A stretch of DNA of 64,000 nucleotides, taken from the NCBI GenBank assembly GCA_016712285.1, contig JADJRK010000001.1, forward strand, positions 2,821,188 through 2,885,187, read 5' to 3'. The position numbers and the translations under genes were made by a program. The notes beneath the pieces were generated by a model, which saw nothing but the letters and a program-made list of their open reading frames with translations, did no database searches and had not been told where the DNA came from. Source of the stretch: Planctomycetota bacterium. Its GTDB lineage: Bacteria; Planctomycetota; UBA8742; UBA2392. Positions 3,880 to 58,456 of this stretch are shown here, piece by piece; position 1 is the stretch's first letter, and the number at the start of each line of letters is the position of its first letter.

Positions 3880-3993
3880 ATTCCGCCCTAAGCCATCGCA
3901 TCAGAACCGTGGCAGCTGCCAGGATTTGCACCAAATGCAAACGCCGCGGATTACTCCGCGGCGTTGCGTTCCCTGCTGTGCATCAAGCTGGTC

Positions 3994-4019
3994 CCTTCCG
4001 GGCCCTAAGGCCCGGAAGG
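3994..4019. terminator. GC-rich perfect hairpin (ccttccgggcc-ctaa-ggcccggaagg) downstream of the HD-domain gene; no U-tract
   Basis: 11-bp perfect inverted repeat with 4-nt loop read directly from sequence; a second palindrome ccgcgg-attact-ccgcgg lies at 3943-3960. Confidence 0.4.
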
Positions 4020-5827: not shown

Positions 5828-5862
5828 ACAGACCCCCGCGCTATGCGGGGGTCTCTGTTTTT
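5828..5862. terminator. bidirectional rho-independent terminator between convergent genes
   Basis: Hairpin agaccccc-gcgctatgc-gggggtct followed by ctgttttt; the stop codon of the minus-strand DMT gene (5841-5843) sits inside the loop. Confidence 0.6.
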
Positions 5863-28277: not shown

Positions 28278-29213
28278 ATGCATCATCCCAACGCCACACG
28301 GTACAGAATCGCCAGCAGCCGCCTGCCAAGGCTGCCCGGCGGCCTGCGTGTTGCACCGCTGCTCGTGCTGCTGGGCTGCCTGTGCGTTGCCGCGCTGGCG
28401 CCGCTGCGCGCCCTGGATGGCGACGCTGAAACCAAGCGCTGGGCGCGGCGCGCGCTGTTGGACGAAGCCACGCGCAAGCACATGAACCTGGACGTCGGCG
28501 AAGTTGAGCCGCTGACGCTCGCACTTGCAGCACCGGGCGACTTCGGCGACGCCGATGACCAGGCAGTGGTGGTGCGCCGCGATGCCGCCACAGCCGTCGT
28601 GATCATGCGCGGCACTACGCCGCTGGGGCGCTGTACATTCAGCACCACGGGGGCGCTGACCATTGCCACACGCAAGCTGGCCGGCCAGACGTGGGTGCTG
28701 CTGGACGAAAGCAGCGAACTGGCGGGCGTGTCTTCGACGCTGCGGCGGCTGATCAGCCTGCGCGATAGCCAGCTTTCGGTGCGCCAGAGCTGGGTGCACT
28801 CGGCGACCGTGAAGATCGGCAAACGCTTTGTGCGCGAACAAAGCAGCGACCTGCGCGAGCTGGGCGGCAGCCTGCTGCTGACCACGCTCGTGGTTGACCG
28901 ACTGGATGGCAAGGCGATGGCAGACTGCGAGTCCGAGACCATTCTCAAGCTGACACCGCAGCCCGACGGCAGCCTGCGCGCCGAAGTAGATAAGGACAAG
29001 CCCGTGCCCGTTGCCGTGCGGCTGCGCCATGCCCGCACCCTTGAGCGAGAAGGCCTTGAGGAAGCCGCCATGCTGCTGGCACGCGAAGCCCGCGAACAGA
29101 GCACCAAACTGCCCGCCGAAGATGCCCGCCGCCTCGACGCAGCCGGCCTTGTCGCAAGGCTTGAGGCCCGGCTGTTGCCCGCCGACAAACCCGTGCAGGT
29201 TTCCCCGCGATAG
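28278..29213 (+). CDS. secreted hypothetical protein
   Basis: 311 aa with hydrophobic N-terminal segment; the competing minus-strand ORF 28283..29251 is Ser/Arg-rich low complexity and judged antisense. Confidence 0.45.
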   Translation: MHHPNATRYRIASSRLPRLPGGLRVAPLLVLLGCLCVAALAPLRALDGDAETKRWARRALLDEATRKHMNLDVGEVEPLTLALAAPGDFGDADDQAVVVRRDAATAVVIMRGTTPLGRCTFSTTGALTIATRKLAGQTWVLLDESSELAGVSSTLRRLISLRDSQLSVRQSWVHSATVKIGKRFVREQSSDLRELGGSLLLTTLVVDRLDGKAMADCESETILKLTPQPDGSLRAEVDKDKPVPVAVRLRHARTLEREGLEEAAMLLAREAREQSTKLPAEDARRLDAAGLVARLEARLLPADKPVQVSPR

Positions 29214-29253
29214 CAGCGTTGCGCCTGTCCCCGCTTGCCGCTAAACCGCACGC

Positions 29254-29700
29254 ATGGCCGTATCGCTGAAGCTCAAACGCCTGCCCCACGGTTCGGGATT
29301 GCCGCTGCCCGCGTATCAATCCGAACACGCCGCCGGCGCCGATGTGCACGCAGCCATCGAGGCATCCGTGCTGCTGTCGCCGGGTCAGCGCGCGCTGGTG
29401 CCGACCGGTTTCTGCTATGAGATTCCGCCCGGGTACGAAATGCAGGTGCGCCCGCGCAGCGGTCTGGCGGCCAAGCATGGCGTCACGGTGCTGAACACGC
29501 CGGGCACGATAGACGCCGACTATCGCGGTGAGCTGAAGGTGCTGCTGGTCAACCTCGGCGTTGAGCCCTTTGAGATCAAGCGGGCCGAGCGCATCGCTCA
29601 AATCATTATTGCCCCGGTCAGCCACGCGACGTTCCACGAAGCTGACGAGCTCTCTGATACCGTTCGCGGCAGCGGCGGCTTTGGCTCCACGGGCAAGTAG
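29254..29700 (+). CDS. dut: dUTP diphosphatase
   Basis: Conserved dUTPase motifs ([51 protein letters not shown]). Confidence 0.9.
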
Positions 29701-29707
29701 CCCGGGT

Positions 29708-30634
29708 TCAATCCCACAATCCCGTGGAGTAGTAGCGCTCGCCGGTGTCGGCAAACACCGTCACGATCTTCGCGCCGGGCTCGTCTTCGGCCAGCTTTCG
29801 GGCCGCGGCGAGGTTCGCGCCGCTGCTTTGGCCCACGAACAGCCCGTTGCGCGCGAGCAGGCGGCTTGCCTCGAAGGCTTCTTCCACGGTGATCTCGATG
29901 CGCTGGTCCACCAGATGCTCGTGGAAATTCTTCGGCTTGATGCTGCCGGGGGCCTTGAGCGGCTTCAGGCCTTCGATGCCCGGAAACTCCTCGGGTTGCA
30001 CCAGCACCACCTGGATGTCGGGGTTGTGGTCTTTGAGGCGCTCGCCAATGCCGGTCAGCGTGCCGCCAGTGCCGACGCCGGATATGAAGTGCGTGATCTC
30101 GCCGGCTTGCGCAACGATCTCGGCGCCGGTGCCGAAGTAGTGGGCCTGCCAGTTTGCGCGGTTGCTGTACTGGTCGATCAGGAAGTACTTGTCCGGCGCG
30201 GCGTGGGCCAGGTCATGGGCCTTGCGCATGGCTTCGTCGTAGCCCAGCAGCGGGTCAGTCAGGATGACTTCGGCGCCGTGGGCCTTGATGCGGCGCAGGC
30301 GCTCAAGGCTCGCGTTGCCCGGGATGACCAGCGTGACCGGGATGCCGAGCGCTGCCCCGATCATCGCGTACGCGATGCCGCTGTTGCCGCTGGTTGAGTC
30401 CAGCACGCGGCGCCCCTGCAGCGTGTCGTCCTCAAGCAGCTTCGCCAGCATGTTCAACACCGGGCGGTCCTTGATGCTGCCACCGGGGTTGACCCATTCG
30501 GCTTTGGCCTTGATGGAAAGTCGCGGAAACAGGTTTTCGTAGACGTTGACCTCAAGCAGCGGCGTGTTGCCAATCAGCTGCAAAGCCGGCACTCGGCGTT
30601 TGAGTTCGTTCACGGATGTAAGCGTCGTCGTCAT
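29708..30634 (-). CDS. cysteine synthase (CysK/CysM family, PLP-dependent)
   Basis: PLP-lysine region GGSIKDRP, motifs SGNSG and GVGTGGTLTG; lies directly downstream of a JAMM/Mec+ gene, the arrangement seen in CysO-dependent CysM pathways. Confidence 0.85.
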   Translation of the reverse strand: MTTTLTSVNELKRRVPALQLIGNTPLLEVNVYENLFPRLSIKAKAEWVNPGGSIKDRPVLNMLAKLLEDDTLQGRRVLDSTSGNSGIAYAMIGAALGIPVTLVIPGNASLERLRRIKAHGAEVILTDPLLGYDEAMRKAHDLAHAAPDKYFLIDQYSNRANWQAHYFGTGAEIVAQAGEITHFISGVGTGGTLTGIGERLKDHNPDIQVVLVQPEEFPGIEGLKPLKAPGSIKPKNFHEHLVDQRIEITVEEAFEASRLLARNGLFVGQSSGANLAAARKLAEDEPGAKIVTVFADTGERYYSTGLWD

Positions 30635-30649
30635 GGCTGGTTCTCTTCA

Positions 30650-30749
30650 GGAGCGCAGGCTTCCCGCCTGCCCGGGGCGCGGACGTCTTGTCCGCGCAAT
30701 GCCGTGGACGAGACGCCCACGGCAGGTGCAGGCCGGAGGCCTGCGCTCC
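30650..30749 (-). promoter_or_regulatory. nested-hairpin element in the mec-cysM intergenic spacer (possible cis-regulatory RNA or REP-like element)
   Basis: Outer 11-bp stem (ggagcgcaggc/gcctgcgctcc) enclosing two hairpins (gcgcggac-gtctt-gtccgcgc and gccgtgg-acgagacgc-ccacggc), all read from sequence. Confidence 0.4.
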
Positions 30750-30750
30750 C

Positions 30751-31161
30751 TCAACATCGCAGCTCTTCCTGCCTGAAGGCGCCTTCGCCCAGCTCAAACG
30801 AGTGAAAGTCGCCGGGTTTGCCCTGGTTCACGGCCACGATGACGTAGCTGTAACCCTCCCACGCGGCTGCCAGGTCGGTTTCGCTGGGGCGCGCCGGGTG
30901 GTCGGGGTGAGAGTGATAGATGCCGATAATGTCCAACCCGCGCGCCCGCGCGTCGCGGTCGATGCGCATGTAGTCTTTCGGGTCCAGCTCAAAGCGGTCG
31001 TGGGCGCGCTGCGTGTTCAGGTTGCCGGTGCGCGCTGATTCAACGGCGACGCGCCCGCCGGCGTCGATGCGACCGACCAGCACGCCGCAGCATTCGTGCG
31101 GGTAGGCTTCAACGGCGTGAACTTCAATCAAGGCCTTGATGGCCGGGGTAATCGTCAACAT
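30751..31161 (-). CDS. JAMM/MPN+ metalloprotease (Mec+-like)
   Basis: Track ORF 30751..31182; JAMM motif HSHPDHPARPSETD, upstream E...CG(V/L)L motif (HECCGVLVG); start at ATG 31161 (MLTITPAIK). Confidence 0.8.
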   Translation of the reverse strand: MLTITPAIKALIEVHAVEAYPHECCGVLVGRIDAGGRVAVESARTGNLNTQRAHDRFELDPKDYMRIDRDARARGLDIIGIYHSHPDHPARPSETDLAAAWEGYSYVIVAVNQGKPGDFHSFELGEGAFRQEELRC

Positions 31162-31279
31162 GGGATTGGTCCGAACAGTCAAACAACGTTGGTCGCACGG
31201 CGGGGAGCCGGGTTATCGACAACAACAGTTGCTCGGACACATGAACATGGCCGCGAGGTTATCCCGACGTGCCTTGCTG

Positions 31280-32014
31280 TCAAGCCGGCGACCGCTGCCA
31301 CTTGCCGTTGACCAGCAGCTCAAAGGGCCTGTAGTGCTGCTTGTACTCCATCGTGCTGCAGCCCTTGACCCAGTAACCAAGGTAGTAGTGCGGAATCTTC
31401 TTGCGGCGGCACAGCTCAATCTCGCTCAGCACGCTGAACACGCCGATGCTGCGTTTGGCCTCTGCGGGCTCAAAGAAGTGGTACACGCTGCTCATGCTGC
31501 GGCGGCTGATGTCGCAGATGCTTACGCCCAGCAGGCGCCCCTGCGGGTCACGGTACTCGACCTCAATGCTGGCCACGCAGCTTGAGTACAGGAATTCCCG
31601 CAGGCTGTCTTCATCCGCGCCCTGCGGGCTCTTGTCGTGCTGGGCCGCCAGGTAGCGCTTGTAGACGTCATGCTTTTCGGGCGTGAGCTCGGGCTCGCTG
31701 ATCGACATCTGCACGTCTGCGTTGCGGCGCAGAACGCGGCGCTGGCTCCTGGTCGGCTTGAAGTCGGCGACCGGCACCCGGATCGGCACGCACATGCGGC
31801 AACCCTGGCAGCGCGTGCGGTACAGAATGTTGCCGCTGCGCCGGATGCCGCGGTCCATGAGTTCGTGGTAAGCCGCCGGGCTGACCTGCCATGCCAGCCA
31901 GGCTTCCTCGGTGGCCTGGCGGTCCGGCAGATAGCTGCACTCGTGCGAATGCAGGCCCAGGGGCACCGAGTGCGGGCCGATCAGGGTAGGAACGCTGACG
32001 TTCTGGGTGCCCAT
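31280..32014 (-). CDS. bpt: arginyl/leucyl-tRNA-protein transferase (Ate1/Bpt family)
   Basis: N-terminal Cys cluster (CQGCRMC) and C-terminal YHFFEP...IPHYYLGYWV segment typical of bacterial Bpt. Confidence 0.65.
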   Translation of the reverse strand: MGTQNVSVPTLIGPHSVPLGLHSHECSYLPDRQATEEAWLAWQVSPAAYHELMDRGIRRSGNILYRTRCQGCRMCVPIRVPVADFKPTRSQRRVLRRNADVQMSISEPELTPEKHDVYKRYLAAQHDKSPQGADEDSLREFLYSSCVASIEVEYRDPQGRLLGVSICDISRRSMSSVYHFFEPAEAKRSIGVFSVLSEIELCRRKKIPHYYLGYWVKGCSTMEYKQHYRPFELLVNGKWQRSPA

Positions 32015-32063
32015 GCGCTACCAAGGTAACCGATTTCGGGTTGCAGGTAGAACGAGTTTCCGG

Positions 32064-32606
32064 CTACACCGGATCCGCCACCACCCGCCTGATCTTGCTG
32101 CGCGCGAGCATCACGACCCGGGCGCACGCCTCTGCGTCGCTCAACGCATCGTGGTGATTCAGCGGAATGTTCAGCACGCGCGCCACATGGCCCAGGTGCG
32201 CAGGGTAAATCCCCAGTGTGCGCCGCGCCTGCCGTACCGTGCACACCCACGGCAGCCCGGGCGCTTCCAGGCCGGCGGTTTCGCAACACGCTTCAAGCAC
32301 TGCCCGGTCAAAGCCGGCGTTGTGCGCCGCCAGAAACACCGCGCCATCCAGCACTTCTTTCAGCAGCAGCCACGCCCGGCCAAACGCCGGTTTGTCCGCA
32401 ACTTCATCCAGAGTGATGCCGTGAATGTGCGTGAAAAACATCTGTTCGCGCGGCGGCTTGAGCAGCTGGCGCACGCGCCTCACCACGCGCCCGCGCTCGA
32501 CGCGCACCATCCCAATGGCGCAGGCTGAATCAGCGCCGTGGTCCGCAGTCTCGAAATCGATCGCGACAAAGGGGCCGGGCACGGGGTCAATGAAGGCGCG
32601 ACTCAT
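32064..32606 (-). CDS. DEDDh 3'-5' exonuclease (DnaQ/epsilon-like)
   Basis: Track ORF 32064..32669; Exo motifs VAIDFETAD, FLAAHNAGFD, HHDALSDA; start at ATG 32606. Confidence 0.75.
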   Translation of the reverse strand: MSRAFIDPVPGPFVAIDFETADHGADSACAIGMVRVERGRVVRRVRQLLKPPREQMFFTHIHGITLDEVADKPAFGRAWLLLKEVLDGAVFLAAHNAGFDRAVLEACCETAGLEAPGLPWVCTVRQARRTLGIYPAHLGHVARVLNIPLNHHDALSDAEACARVVMLARSKIRRVVADPV

Positions 32607-34123: not shown

Positions 34124-34645
34124 TCAGGCGGCGGCTGGCAGGCGAATGCTGTCGGGAAAGTCATCTTCCACGACAAGCAATGCCGGCAGCCGGATGCTGT
34201 CGGGAAAGTCCTCTTCCACAATGATCAGCGTACCCTCAAGCTCAGGGTCGGTGTTATCCGCGTACTCGACCAGCACCTCGCGCAGGCCGTAAAGTGTGAA
34301 GGCATTCCAGACCTGGCGCGTCGGCTGAATCAGCTGCAGTGCAGTCCCGCGCGCCATGCAGGCCTGCGCAAACTCGACCAGTACCGCCAGCGCACAGCCA
34401 TCCATGAAGCGCACGCCGGACAGATTAACTGAGAGGAGCCGGTGCTTCTCAGCCAGCAACCGGAACAGTCGTTTGCGCAGCAGGGCGGCGCCCTGCATGC
34501 ACAGGCGCCCGGCAACATGAGTGCTGGGGTTGGCGCGAACGGGCGGGGCGCTGGATGGCGGCTCAGTCTCCGCAATGAGTTTGCGGATGCGGGTGGTAAT
34601 GCGCTTGATCGCAGCGACCGGCATGAAGCCTCCGGCAAGCTTCAT
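34124..34645 (-). CDS. STAS-domain protein (anti-sigma-factor antagonist-like) with a duplicated C-terminal 15-aa unit
   Basis: Track ORF 34124..34786; STAS-like core (LSVNLSGVRFMDGCALAVLVEF); C-terminus contains VEEDFPDSIRLPA twice, encoded by a tandem DNA repeat of about 45 bp. Confidence 0.6.
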   Translation of the reverse strand: MKLAGGFMPVAAIKRITTRIRKLIAETEPPSSAPPVRANPSTHVAGRLCMQGAALLRKRLFRLLAEKHRLLSVNLSGVRFMDGCALAVLVEFAQACMARGTALQLIQPTRQVWNAFTLYGLREVLVEYADNTDPELEGTLIIVEEDFPDSIRLPALLVVEDDFPDSIRLPAAA

Positions 34646-36670: not shown

Positions 36671-36739
36671 CTGTCACAATCCGGGTGTAAAACAGATCGC
36701 CCGCGCACACGCGCGGGCGATTCATGTTTGCTCGGGCAC

Positions 36740-41852: not shown

Positions 41853-41982
41853 CCCATCCTCCATGAGGGGGCCAGACTATACATATCCGGCTTTCCACCA
41901 AGCAGGGGGAAACCGGGCCAAATACCATGCATGTATATCGGCATTCTGGCGCCCTGCGCTTGGGCCAAATCGGGGCCCAAGC

Positions 41983-44388: not shown

Positions 44389-44530
44389 GTGTGTGTGGTG
44401 AGGAGTGCGACGTGCGTAGTGCGTAGTGGGTGGAGGGCGATCACAACACCCGACAGAGTTCATTGCCTTCGATCGACGAGCACTACGCACCAAGCACCCA
44501 GCACTACGCACTCCCCCGGAGGGCCAAGCC

Positions 44531-58428: not shown

Positions 58429-58456
58429 GCGGCGCGGACCGTGTGGTCCGCGCCGC
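58429..58456. terminator. GC-rich hairpin between convergent genes (end of cbb3 operon)
   Basis: 12-bp perfect stem gcggcgcggacc-gtgt-ggtccgcgccgc followed by aattcttc. Confidence 0.5.

Follow-up and report, generated by a model that had tools for sequence, protein, structure and literature searches.

Two genes of the cysteine pathway, mec and cysM, lie next to each other on the minus strand of the planctomycete contig JADJRK010000001.1 (assembly GCA_016712285.1), separated by a gap of 116 nt (positions 30635-30750) that is folded almost throughout. The locus raises the question whether this fold is an RNA that controls the downstream cysteine synthase gene, a terminator or processing site, or a copy of a dispersed repeat. 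We analysed it within a window of 64,000 nt (64 kb; positions 2,821,188 to 2,885,187 of the contig), to whose numbering all coordinates without a locus number refer; loci in other genomes are given as L numbers. Our answer, to which we assign a probability of roughly 85%, is that positions 30650-30749 hold one copy of a dispersed composite of ~100 bp, made of repetitive extragenic palindromic (REP) units in the inverted-doublet arrangement of a REPIN (REP doublet forming a hairpin), vertically inherited, likely copied by a REP-associated tyrosine transposase (RAYT) and likely altering mec-cysM expression.

Anatomy of the folded spacer

An earlier note on this DNA had described nested helices in 30635-30750, and its sequence, coordinates and pairings were borne out by inverted-repeat search and folding. 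The motif GGAGCGCAGGC at 30650-30660 pairs without mismatch with 30739-30749, giving an outer helix of 11 bp. A 136-nt stretch folded in mRNA sense reached -85.7 kcal/mol, whereas 200 dinucleotide-shuffled versions gave -58.3 +/- 4.1 kcal/mol and none of them folded as well (z = -6.6). The plus strand of the spacer region folds almost equally well (z = -6.3), because the element is a near-perfect palindrome. No credible open reading frame (ORF) was found in the 116-nt spacer. Its parts are as follows.

30650-30749, minus strand: complete 100-bp composite palindromic repeat (REPIN-type doublet plus two inner hairpins), from folding and covariance model R1
30727-30749, minus strand: REP unit A, consisting of a GGAG tag, a CGCAGGC(C) stem, a loop, GGCCTGC and A
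30701-30723, minus strand: inner hairpin H2, in mRNA sense GCCGTGGGC GUCUC GUCCACGGC
30677-30697, minus strand: inner hairpin H3, in mRNA sense GCGCGGAC AAGAC GUCCGCGC, with a perfect 8-bp stem
30650-30672, plus strand: REP unit B, GGAGCGCAGGC TTCCC GCCTGCC, an inverted copy of unit A
30635-30649, minus strand: single-stranded linker of 15 nt, UGAAGAGAACCAGCC, between the element and the cysM AUG

The element begins 1 nt past the mec stop codon. Unit A is the 5' arm of the outer helix and also a local 7-bp hairpin, and unit B is the 3' arm in the mRNA; the small local hairpins formed by both arms (30728-30744 and 30655-30671) had gone unnoticed in the earlier note. The element can accordingly be read in mRNA sense as four REP-like hairpins, namely H1 (GGAG-CGCAGGC CUCCG GCCUGC-A), H2 (GCCGUGGGC GUCUC GUCCACGGC), H3 and H4 (GGGCAGGC GGGAA GCCUGCG-CUCC, with GGAGCGCAGGC TTCCC GCCTGCC as its reverse complement). 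The outer 11-bp helix exists because H1 and H4 are inverted copies of one REP unit, GGAG-CGCAGGC-N5-GCCTGC, which may also be written GGAGCGCAGGC-N5-GCCTGC. Units A and B measure 23 nt each, with 6-7-bp stems and 3-5-nt loops, and H2 and H3 measure 21-23 nt; all are thus short GC-rich palindromes. The stem of H2 (30700-30724 or 30701-30723) is perfect over 7-8 bp and is lengthened by a G.U pair on the mRNA (minus) strand, the equivalent of which on the plus strand is an A.C mismatch. On the plus strand H3 reads GCGCGGAC GTCTT GTCCGCGC, with a loop of 5 nt. The nested fold (-81 to -86 kcal/mol, with -84 kcal/mol when set against the local hairpins) and the set of four local hairpins (approximately -66 kcal/mol) are both stable.

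A spacer so strongly structured would suit a locus-specific cis-regulatory RNA (a riboswitch, an attenuator or a structure sequestering the ribosome-binding site) controlling cysM by sulfur or cysteine status, and the earlier note had proposed that the fold occludes the cysM ribosome-binding region. This proposal was not supported. With the spacer folded alone, the 15 nt upstream of the cysM AUG, the presumed landing site of the ribosome, are unpaired with a probability of ~1. When more flanking sequence is folded, weak pairing appears between the end of mec and 4 nt of the linker (CAGC) shortly before the AUG, which speaks for sequestration, but the pairing involves just these 4 nt and is not conserved in the related locus L013. 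A cmscan search of 29000-32500 against Rfam, even at E <= 10, returned three chance-level matches elsewhere and none in the spacer.

The element belongs to a dispersed repeat family

Scanning one genome per species of the Genome Taxonomy Database (GTDB) with the pattern GGAGCGCAGGCCNNNGGCCTGCA, which has 20 specified bases, gave matches in at least 118 genome stretches, where ~1 is expected under uniform base composition by our own calculation, and more in GC-rich genomes. About a dozen of these, found in GC-rich coding sequence from Proteobacteria and Actinomycetes, look like chance; the others cluster by genome. Matching loci number at least 21 in the isolate Horticoccus sp. 23ND18S-11 (Verrucomicrobiota), at least 14 in one metagenome-assembled genome (MAG) of Acidobacteriota, at least 7 in one Chthoniobacterales MAG and at least 3-4 in each of two sister Planctomycetota MAGs. 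The family has at least 4 loci in MAG SJ873 and at least 5 in ACE_PLA33. Among the matches listed, the REP 23-mer GGAGCGCAGGCCnnnGGCCTGCA occurs in many copies within single genomes of Verrucomicrobiota, Acidobacteriota and Planctomycetota, and 66 inverted doublets of the REP unit, the paired arrangement of a REPIN, were extracted from them. Degenerate forms of the unit are described by the patterns G[GT]AGCGCAGGC and GCCTGCGCT[AC]C.

The size of the doublet differs by lineage, being 54-66 bp in Opitutaceae, which have no inner hairpins, 120-135 bp in Chthoniobacterales and Spartobacteria, and 99-102 bp in Planctomycetota, with the same four-hairpin layout as the window copy. Full-length copies 75-83% identical to that of the window are present at 8 or more unrelated Planctomycetota loci. 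For 10 copies aligned with RNAalifold, the consensus structure was the window's own minimum-free-energy structure, with double compensatory changes in 11 of the 38 pairs; these changes all fell within the inner hairpins, and the outer REP stems were nearly invariant. The H2 stem covaries among paralogues (variants CCGCGGAC, CCGGGGAC and CCGTCGGC), as does that of H3. Model R1, which was built from Planctomycetota copies and whose E-values are rough by design, has the element as its sole significant match in the window (108 bits), and finds copies outside its training set at L014 4444-4544 (82.6 bits), L122 6656-6755 (58 bits), L094 (50 bits), L136 1114-1191 (46 bits) and L051.

The tetranucleotide tag typical of REPs is present in a degenerate form, GGAG, in the window and in most copies, and as true GTAG in paralogues of L018, L107, L031 and L070; degenerate tags (GYRG, GTGG) have been accepted for GTAG REPs (PMC3733652). 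In L136, the copy at the orthologous position has a GTAG tag that doubles as the stop codon of mec. Intergenic copies sit 0-3 nt from a stop codon, and both the abutting of stop codons and the donation of the stop by the tag are published REP behaviour (PMC3733652). Copies occur in both orientations, in or beside genes for an oxidoreductase, a hydrolase, fabZ and other unrelated genes.

The earlier note had also allowed for a REP-type insertion, and this reading proved right, given a family dispersed over many unrelated loci and a cognate RAYT in the closest sister genome (see below). It had further held that recurrence of the sequence would count against a regulator. The sequence does recur, in sister genomes and in other phyla, and is single-copy in the 64 kb of the source genome. 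The same 100-bp element at unrelated loci, including the interior of oxidoreductase and hydrolase ORFs, is not the restriction to related genes that a cysM regulator would lead one to expect.

A role at the DNA level only, as a cruciform or as a gyrase or nucleoid-protein site of the type proposed for enterobacterial REPs and bacterial interspersed mosaic elements (BIMEs), would make the position in the mRNA incidental. It would agree with the near-equal palindromy of the two strands (z = -6.3 and -6.6) and with copies in both orientations and inside ORFs; however, the pair that lengthens H2 is G.U on the mRNA strand and mismatched on the other, and the intergenic copies hug stop codons, suggesting a constraint linked to translation or to the transcript. 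We regard this explanation as unlikely.

Several observations on individual copies deserve mention. Long ORFs enclose copies of 99 or 102 bp at L018 4199-4300 and 4547-4645, L022 1913-2014, L086 4958-5056 and L107 3951-4049; with lengths that are multiples of three, these copies keep the frame in genes for a FAD oxidoreductase, an alpha/beta hydrolase and others, and encode segments such as GSAGLRPA...AGGTPALP. The full family copy at L014 4444-4544 (MAG GCA_020638675.1) has variant termini (GTGTTGCGGGC...GCCCGCAACAC) and fills the gap between the convergent genes cysM and dut, at distances of 3 nt and 1 nt from the respective stop codons; the corresponding gap in the window measures 7 nt. Among the listed matches L017-L134, the 23-nt REP head is common to Verrucomicrobiota, Acidobacteriota, Planctomycetota and Fimbriimonadaceae (Armatimonadota), and the size of the doublet (about 55-66, 100 or 120-135 bp) and its inner content are lineage-specific. 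The shared head suggests that one REP-RAYT lineage may have spread across phyla.

No second copy was detected in the window with a search for the 11-mer allowing one mismatch, a repeat finder and the unfiltered covariance model, beyond a marginal match at 58429-58456. The latter is a perfect 12-bp hairpin (GCGGCGCGGACC GTGT GGTCCGCGCCGC) between convergent genes, has the GCGCGGAC/GTCCGCGC core in common with H3 and could be either a solitary REP-like unit or a plain terminator.

A cognate transposase in sister genomes

In MAG SJ873 (GCA_020849795.1), the Mec protein of which is 96% identical to that of the window, the exact H1 23-mer occurs twice in inverted orientation at L022, 4110-4132 (+) and 4798-4820 (-), and a Y1/HUH transposase is encoded between the two copies. 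This RAYT matches PF01797 with 30.6 bits (cut-off 23; 4e-7) and contains the motifs YLPHW, MPNHVHVV and YTLEKPNVAGL. The same REP-RAYT-REP arrangement is found in ACE_PLA33, with a RAYT 65% identical to it; L018 has the same RAYT-flanking repeat as L022, and L079 has a RAYT with a variant repeat. A cognate RAYT is therefore present in sister genomes, and none was found within the 64-kb window. A RAYT flanked by inverted repeats and the lack of a target duplication are among the defining traits of REP/REPIN-RAYT systems (PMC3733652, PMC5581495).

From this we infer the following origin. Two inverted GGAG-tagged (or degenerate GTAG) REP units that enclose two further REP-like hairpins would have been copied by a RAYT (HUH/Y1) encoded elsewhere in the genome, a process that would leave no target-site duplication. 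No consistent direct repeat flanks the 13 copies inspected. A candidate duplication, GAAGAG around the insertion as judged against L009, was rejected, since Mec ends in ...RC* with or without the REP and the 13 copies show none. A miniature inverted-repeat transposable element (MITE) mobilised by a DDE transposase would account for the perfect 11-bp terminal inverted repeats, the length of ~100 bp and the multiple copies. Yet such an element should carry the target-site duplication that the 13 copies lack, its termini are here hairpin-forming REP units that are also found singly, and the enzyme flanked by the repeat is of the Y1/HUH and not of the DDE type, all of which makes a MITE most improbable.

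The RAYT genes themselves are embedded in other genes. REP-RAYT-REP lies in-frame within fabZ, in one open frame of 399 aa, at L022 3845-5044 (+) (SJ873 contig JADZFR010000022), and in-frame within fabZ also at L018 1063-2223 (-), the order being FabZ N-terminal part, REP-encoded SAGLRPA, RAYT, REP-encoded DAGRRPAL and FabZ C-terminal part. At least 36 clusters of proteins with 51-100% identity, the majority of them from Planctomycetota MAGs, join FabA/FabZ and Y1_Tnp in a single protein; across these clusters the insertion site, the FabZ parts and the RAYT catalytic residues are conserved and the length of the REP-encoded linker varies. A related RAYT flanked by GGAGCGCACGC-type REPs is in-frame in recG of a Chthoniobacterales MAG (L079 5323-7998, minus strand). 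Further related RAYTs are in-frame within, or fused to, an AlaRS-like protein (P0159), the class-I tRNA ligase P0235 and the C-terminus of the ketol-acid reductoisomerase encoded by ilvC (P0222; L135 1501-3360), and called proteins also join Y1_Tnp with AdoMet decarboxylase, NAD synthase or YacG domains. Such long RAYT proteins were discarded in PMC6006769. The literature searched contained no description of RAYTs in-frame within housekeeping genes, and this pattern may not have been looked at before.

History and conservation at the mec-cysM junction

The adjacency of mec and cysM is kept in all relatives examined, with the following spacers (identities are to the Mec of the window).

L001-L004: Mec 96%, same 116-nt spacer
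L005-L008 and L130: Mec 87%, same 116-nt spacer
L013 and L087: Mec 80%, same outer REP pair, single inner hairpin
L056: H1 and H2 plus extra hairpins
L014: Mec 77%, diverged REP hairpins, R1 31 bits
L015: Mec 80%, diverged REP hairpins, R1 22 bits
L136: Mec 73%, GTAG version
L016: Mec 79%, 39-nt spacer without the element
L009: Mec 79%, mec and cysM overlapping by ATGA, without the element

The insertion is thus old, vertically inherited and structurally fluid, and the gene pair also exists without it. Substitutions in the element were compared with those at 4-fold degenerate sites of four flanking genes, our synonymous reference.

Window and L005: 4 differences per 100 bp, 26.6% at 4-fold sites, p = 3e-9
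Window and L001: 8 differences per 100 bp, 20.1% at 4-fold sites, p = 8e-4
L001 and L005: 10 differences per 100 bp, 28.4% at 4-fold sites, p = 7e-6

These counts indicate that the element is under constraint beyond that of synonymous sites. The constraint does not prove a local function, because the ate-mec spacer upstream is equally conserved and because REPIN families are held by family-level selection, as outlined in PMC8049555.

The earlier note had called for covariance analysis across homologous spacers. Compensatory changes were indeed recovered among the dispersed paralogues; the orthologous mec-cysM spacers were uninformative, as the three haplotypes differ at 10 positions (7 in stems, 3 in loops), too few for covariation statistics. 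Scanning metagenomes for mec loci yielded one relative above 54% identity (L136), a result that served the cysO comparison but not fine-scale covariation.

The junction also bears on the regulatory RNA introduced above. Conservation above synonymous sites in three lineages, and a structure kept at this junction down to 73% Mec identity, are what a regulator of cysM would be expected to show. On the other hand, the inner content varies, L013 having a single hairpin and L014, L015 and L056 having different ones, and neither L016 nor L009, a relative with 79% Mec identity, carries the element. No conserved unpaired core resembling a ligand pocket is present, variation affecting loops and stems alike. 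Taken with the recurrence at unrelated loci, the open linker and the empty Rfam search, this renders a locus-specific regulator very unlikely, and we prefer the vertically inherited REPIN.

Flanking genes and the absence of cysO

30751-31161, minus strand: mec-like gene for a JAMM/MPN+ metalloprotease, 136 aa from the ATG at 31161, with the frame open to 31182
29708-30634, minus strand: gene for a CysM/CysK-type pyridoxal phosphate (PLP)-dependent cysteine synthase, 308 aa (PF00291, 1.2e-66)

The mec gene ends with TGA at 30753-30751. Its product matches Prok-JAB (PF14464, 2.6e-27) and, under the cut-off, the NCBIfam desampylase model (4e-24); the Mec homologues at 96% and 87% identity are also 136 aa long. 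The cysteine synthase (PALP) matches TIGR01136 (1.7e-85) and TIGR01138 (2.9e-83), both under their curated cut-offs, and cysteine synthases in the PDB.

In Mycobacterium tuberculosis, the mec-cysO-cysM operon serves CysO-dependent cysteine synthesis, reportedly described by Burns and colleagues in 2005. As in that operon, a JAMM protease gene adjoins the gene of a CysM-type PLP enzyme on one strand; unlike in that operon, no cysO lies between them, and no carrier gene was found anywhere in the 64-kb window or at sister loci. The earlier note was correct in stating that the spacer contains no cysO, which is unusual in comparison with distant mec loci and is a trait of the whole clade. The order it had called usual, mec-cysO-cysM, is real as well: a ThiS-like gene follows mec in most of 80 metagenomic loci with 42-54% Mec identity. 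In these loci the CysO-like genes encode 92-96 aa, with MSVTVKIPTPLRP...LPSIAGGx, and overlap the mec stop codon by ATGA (4 nt). Elsewhere among the distant loci (L137-L215) a TusA-like or ThiF/MoeB-like gene follows mec. The distant CysO proteins end in ...AGG with 1-5 extra residues, a tail of the kind expected if the JAMM protease trims the C-terminus.

No coding-like ORF that ends in GG was detected. Pfam searches gave no match in the small ORFs, and tblastn with 8 distant CysO sequences against the window and sister loci found nothing (best E = 0.026), so that neither the spacer nor the rest of the 64 kb yielded a ThiS/CysO-like gene. L009 is devoid of both cysO and the element, and the loss of cysO is therefore independent of the repeat. 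A comparison of CysM with structures in the PDB was tried as an indicator of CysO-dependence and dropped as not discriminating (155 bits to CysM of M. tuberculosis and 177 bits to that of E. coli/Salmonella).

Possible effects on the mec-cysM message

The element would be transcribed within the mec-cysM message, where it would fold very stably and leave the 15 nt before the cysM AUG free. It would thereby break the translational coupling of mec and cysM that is expected of the ATGA-overlap arrangement, cysM being initiated independently on the open 15-nt landing site. It may in addition act as a barrier to 3' exonucleases that protects the upstream message, or as a partial block to transcription that attenuates read-through, either of which would result in unequal levels of mec and cysM. 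Through its closeness to the stop codon the element may also slow Mec termination and lower Mec output; according to the summary of Liang et al. 2015 given in PMC12306157, translation in E. coli is lowered by REPs at a distance of up to 15 nt from a stop codon.

A different explanation is that the mec transcript ends at these hairpins, which would be a plain, non-mobile terminator or RNase processing site, and that cysM is served by a promoter of its own. The element does start right after a stop codon, and other perfect GC-rich hairpins occur at gene 3' ends in the window (5830-5854, 36696-36721 after rplT, and 58429-58456). These terminator-like hairpins are, however, single and not 100-bp composites; a promoter and terminator scan found no sigma-70-like promoter and no terminator-like site in or beside the spacer, there is no U-tract after the element, and membership of the repeat family accounts for the sequence fully. 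We therefore give a non-mobile terminator or processing site very little credence.

Some points weigh against the REPIN reading as a whole or against parts of it. Only one copy is present in the 64 kb of the source genome, the next match to R1 (58429-58456) reaching 18.6 bits with E ~0.09, and multi-copy status and RAYT rest on sister MAGs, the source genome having been read over 64 kb. The L022 RAYT scores 68 bits (6e-19) with the NCBIfam model REP_Tyr_transpos (NF047646), for which the curated cut-off is 80. A substitution rate lower than the synonymous one could reflect a locus-specific function rather than family-level constraint, and the neighbouring ate-mec spacer is equally conserved (0.96, 0.92 and 0.90). 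The proposed effects at the RNA level are extrapolated from enterobacterial REPs, and classical intrinsic termination is not predicted, because the helix is followed by UGAAGAGAACCAGCC and not by a U-tract.

With these points taken into account, the REPIN reading means for annotation that a striking fold between two cysteine-pathway genes is, in all probability, a generic repeat and not a sulfur-responsive RNA. REPIN biology gains a clearly delimited family from phyla that have been little studied, with a fixed four-hairpin layout, compensatory stems, orthologous persistence, in-ORF copies and a fabZ-embedded transposase. A more far-reaching proposal, which we put forward tentatively and consider doubtful on balance, is that these repeats are an undescribed GGAG-tagged REPIN family whose 23-nt REP head has stayed nearly identical across Planctomycetota, Verrucomicrobiota, Acidobacteriota and Armatimonadota, with its RAYT anchored in-frame in housekeeping genes (fabZ in Planctomycetota; recG, alaS and tRNA-ligase genes for related RAYTs) and the replicator thereby tied to essential ORFs, and that the mec-cysM copy, long constrained more strongly than synonymous sites and located 1 nt past the stop codon, was co-opted to set the Mec:CysM expression ratio in a clade that lost its adjacent cysO. 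Should this copy really adjust mec relative to cysM, it would offer a naturally occurring example of translational coupling in an operon being supplanted by a selfish repeat.

Other features of the window

The ate-mec spacer (31162-31279, minus strand, 118 nt) is conserved like coding DNA (96%, 92% and 90% in the three haplotypes), is not unusually structured (z = -1.3) and may carry a promoter or leader for mec-cysM. GC-rich hairpins with perfect 9-11-bp stems and no clear U-tract are found at gene 3' ends at 3940-3965, 3994-4019, 5830-5854, 36696-36721 and 41958-41982, one of them after rplT (L20) and some between convergent genes; they are probably the organism's usual terminators or 3'-end structures. 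In the 3' part of a STAS-domain gene (34134-34219) there is a direct repeat with a period of 48 nt, the two 38-nt copies of which are 89% identical, and an imperfect inverted repeat of 32 nt surrounds the gene junction 44388/44420 (44391-44511).

Comparison with known repeat systems

The nearest described relatives are the GTAG REPs of Opitutus terrae (GTAG-17 to -20) and Rhodopirellula baltica (GTAG-20 to -22), two members of the Planctomycetes-Verrucomicrobia-Chlamydiae (PVC) group (Di Nocera et al. 2013, PMC3733652). As in those, a tetranucleotide tag precedes a 6-9-bp GC stem with a short loop, units form head-to-head dimers, copies follow the upstream ORF closely on its 3' side and at times give it its stop codon through the tag, in-frame intragenic copies are frequent and RAYT genes are flanked by the repeat. 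The loop GGGAC/GTCCC of O. terrae GTAG-19, back-translated from the REP-encoded peptides GTGVPPV and HGRDARAT, also occurs in the GGAG family. Unlike in the PVC GTAG REPs, the tag is mostly GGAG, with GTAG in the minority, the stem is CGCAGGC and not CACGGGC, the Planctomycetota unit is a fixed four-hairpin composite of ~100 bp, and the same 23-mer is common to at least three or four phyla. We found no published description of a GGAG-CGCAGGC family, which was not compared with the consensus figures of PMC3733652 and may equal one of the families there. Full-text matches to the motif GGAGCGCAGGC were unrelated oligonucleotides and primers only.

The REPINs and RAYTs of Pseudomonas fluorescens and E. 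coli (Bertels & Rainey 2011, PMC3116915; Bertels et al. 2017, PMC5581495), and likewise BIMEs, share with the present family an inverted doublet that folds into a long hairpin and is, rather than the single REP, the repeated unit. Further traits in common are a HUH/Y1 transposase that is single-copy and has the repeat on both sides, vertical inheritance with persistence at orthologous sites, and the lack of target duplication. The present family differs from them in its two extra inner hairpins, in a RAYT that is in-frame in fabZ and not free-standing, and in its low density of one copy in 64 kb.

The control of upstream-gene translation and of mRNA stability by E. coli REPs (Liang, Rudd & Deutscher 2015 and Newbury et al. 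1987, cited here through PMC12306157) likewise involves a stable REP within an operon, less than 16 nt after a stop codon (here 1 nt); the structure is much larger here, and planctomycete ribosome rescue and RNase repertoires may differ. Finally, the window copy is intergenic, 100 bp long and unlike the Rickettsia palindromic elements (RPE; PMC3733652) in sequence family and host phylum, but the 99- and 102-bp members in sister MAGs resemble RPE in being palindromic repeats carried in-frame within protein genes.

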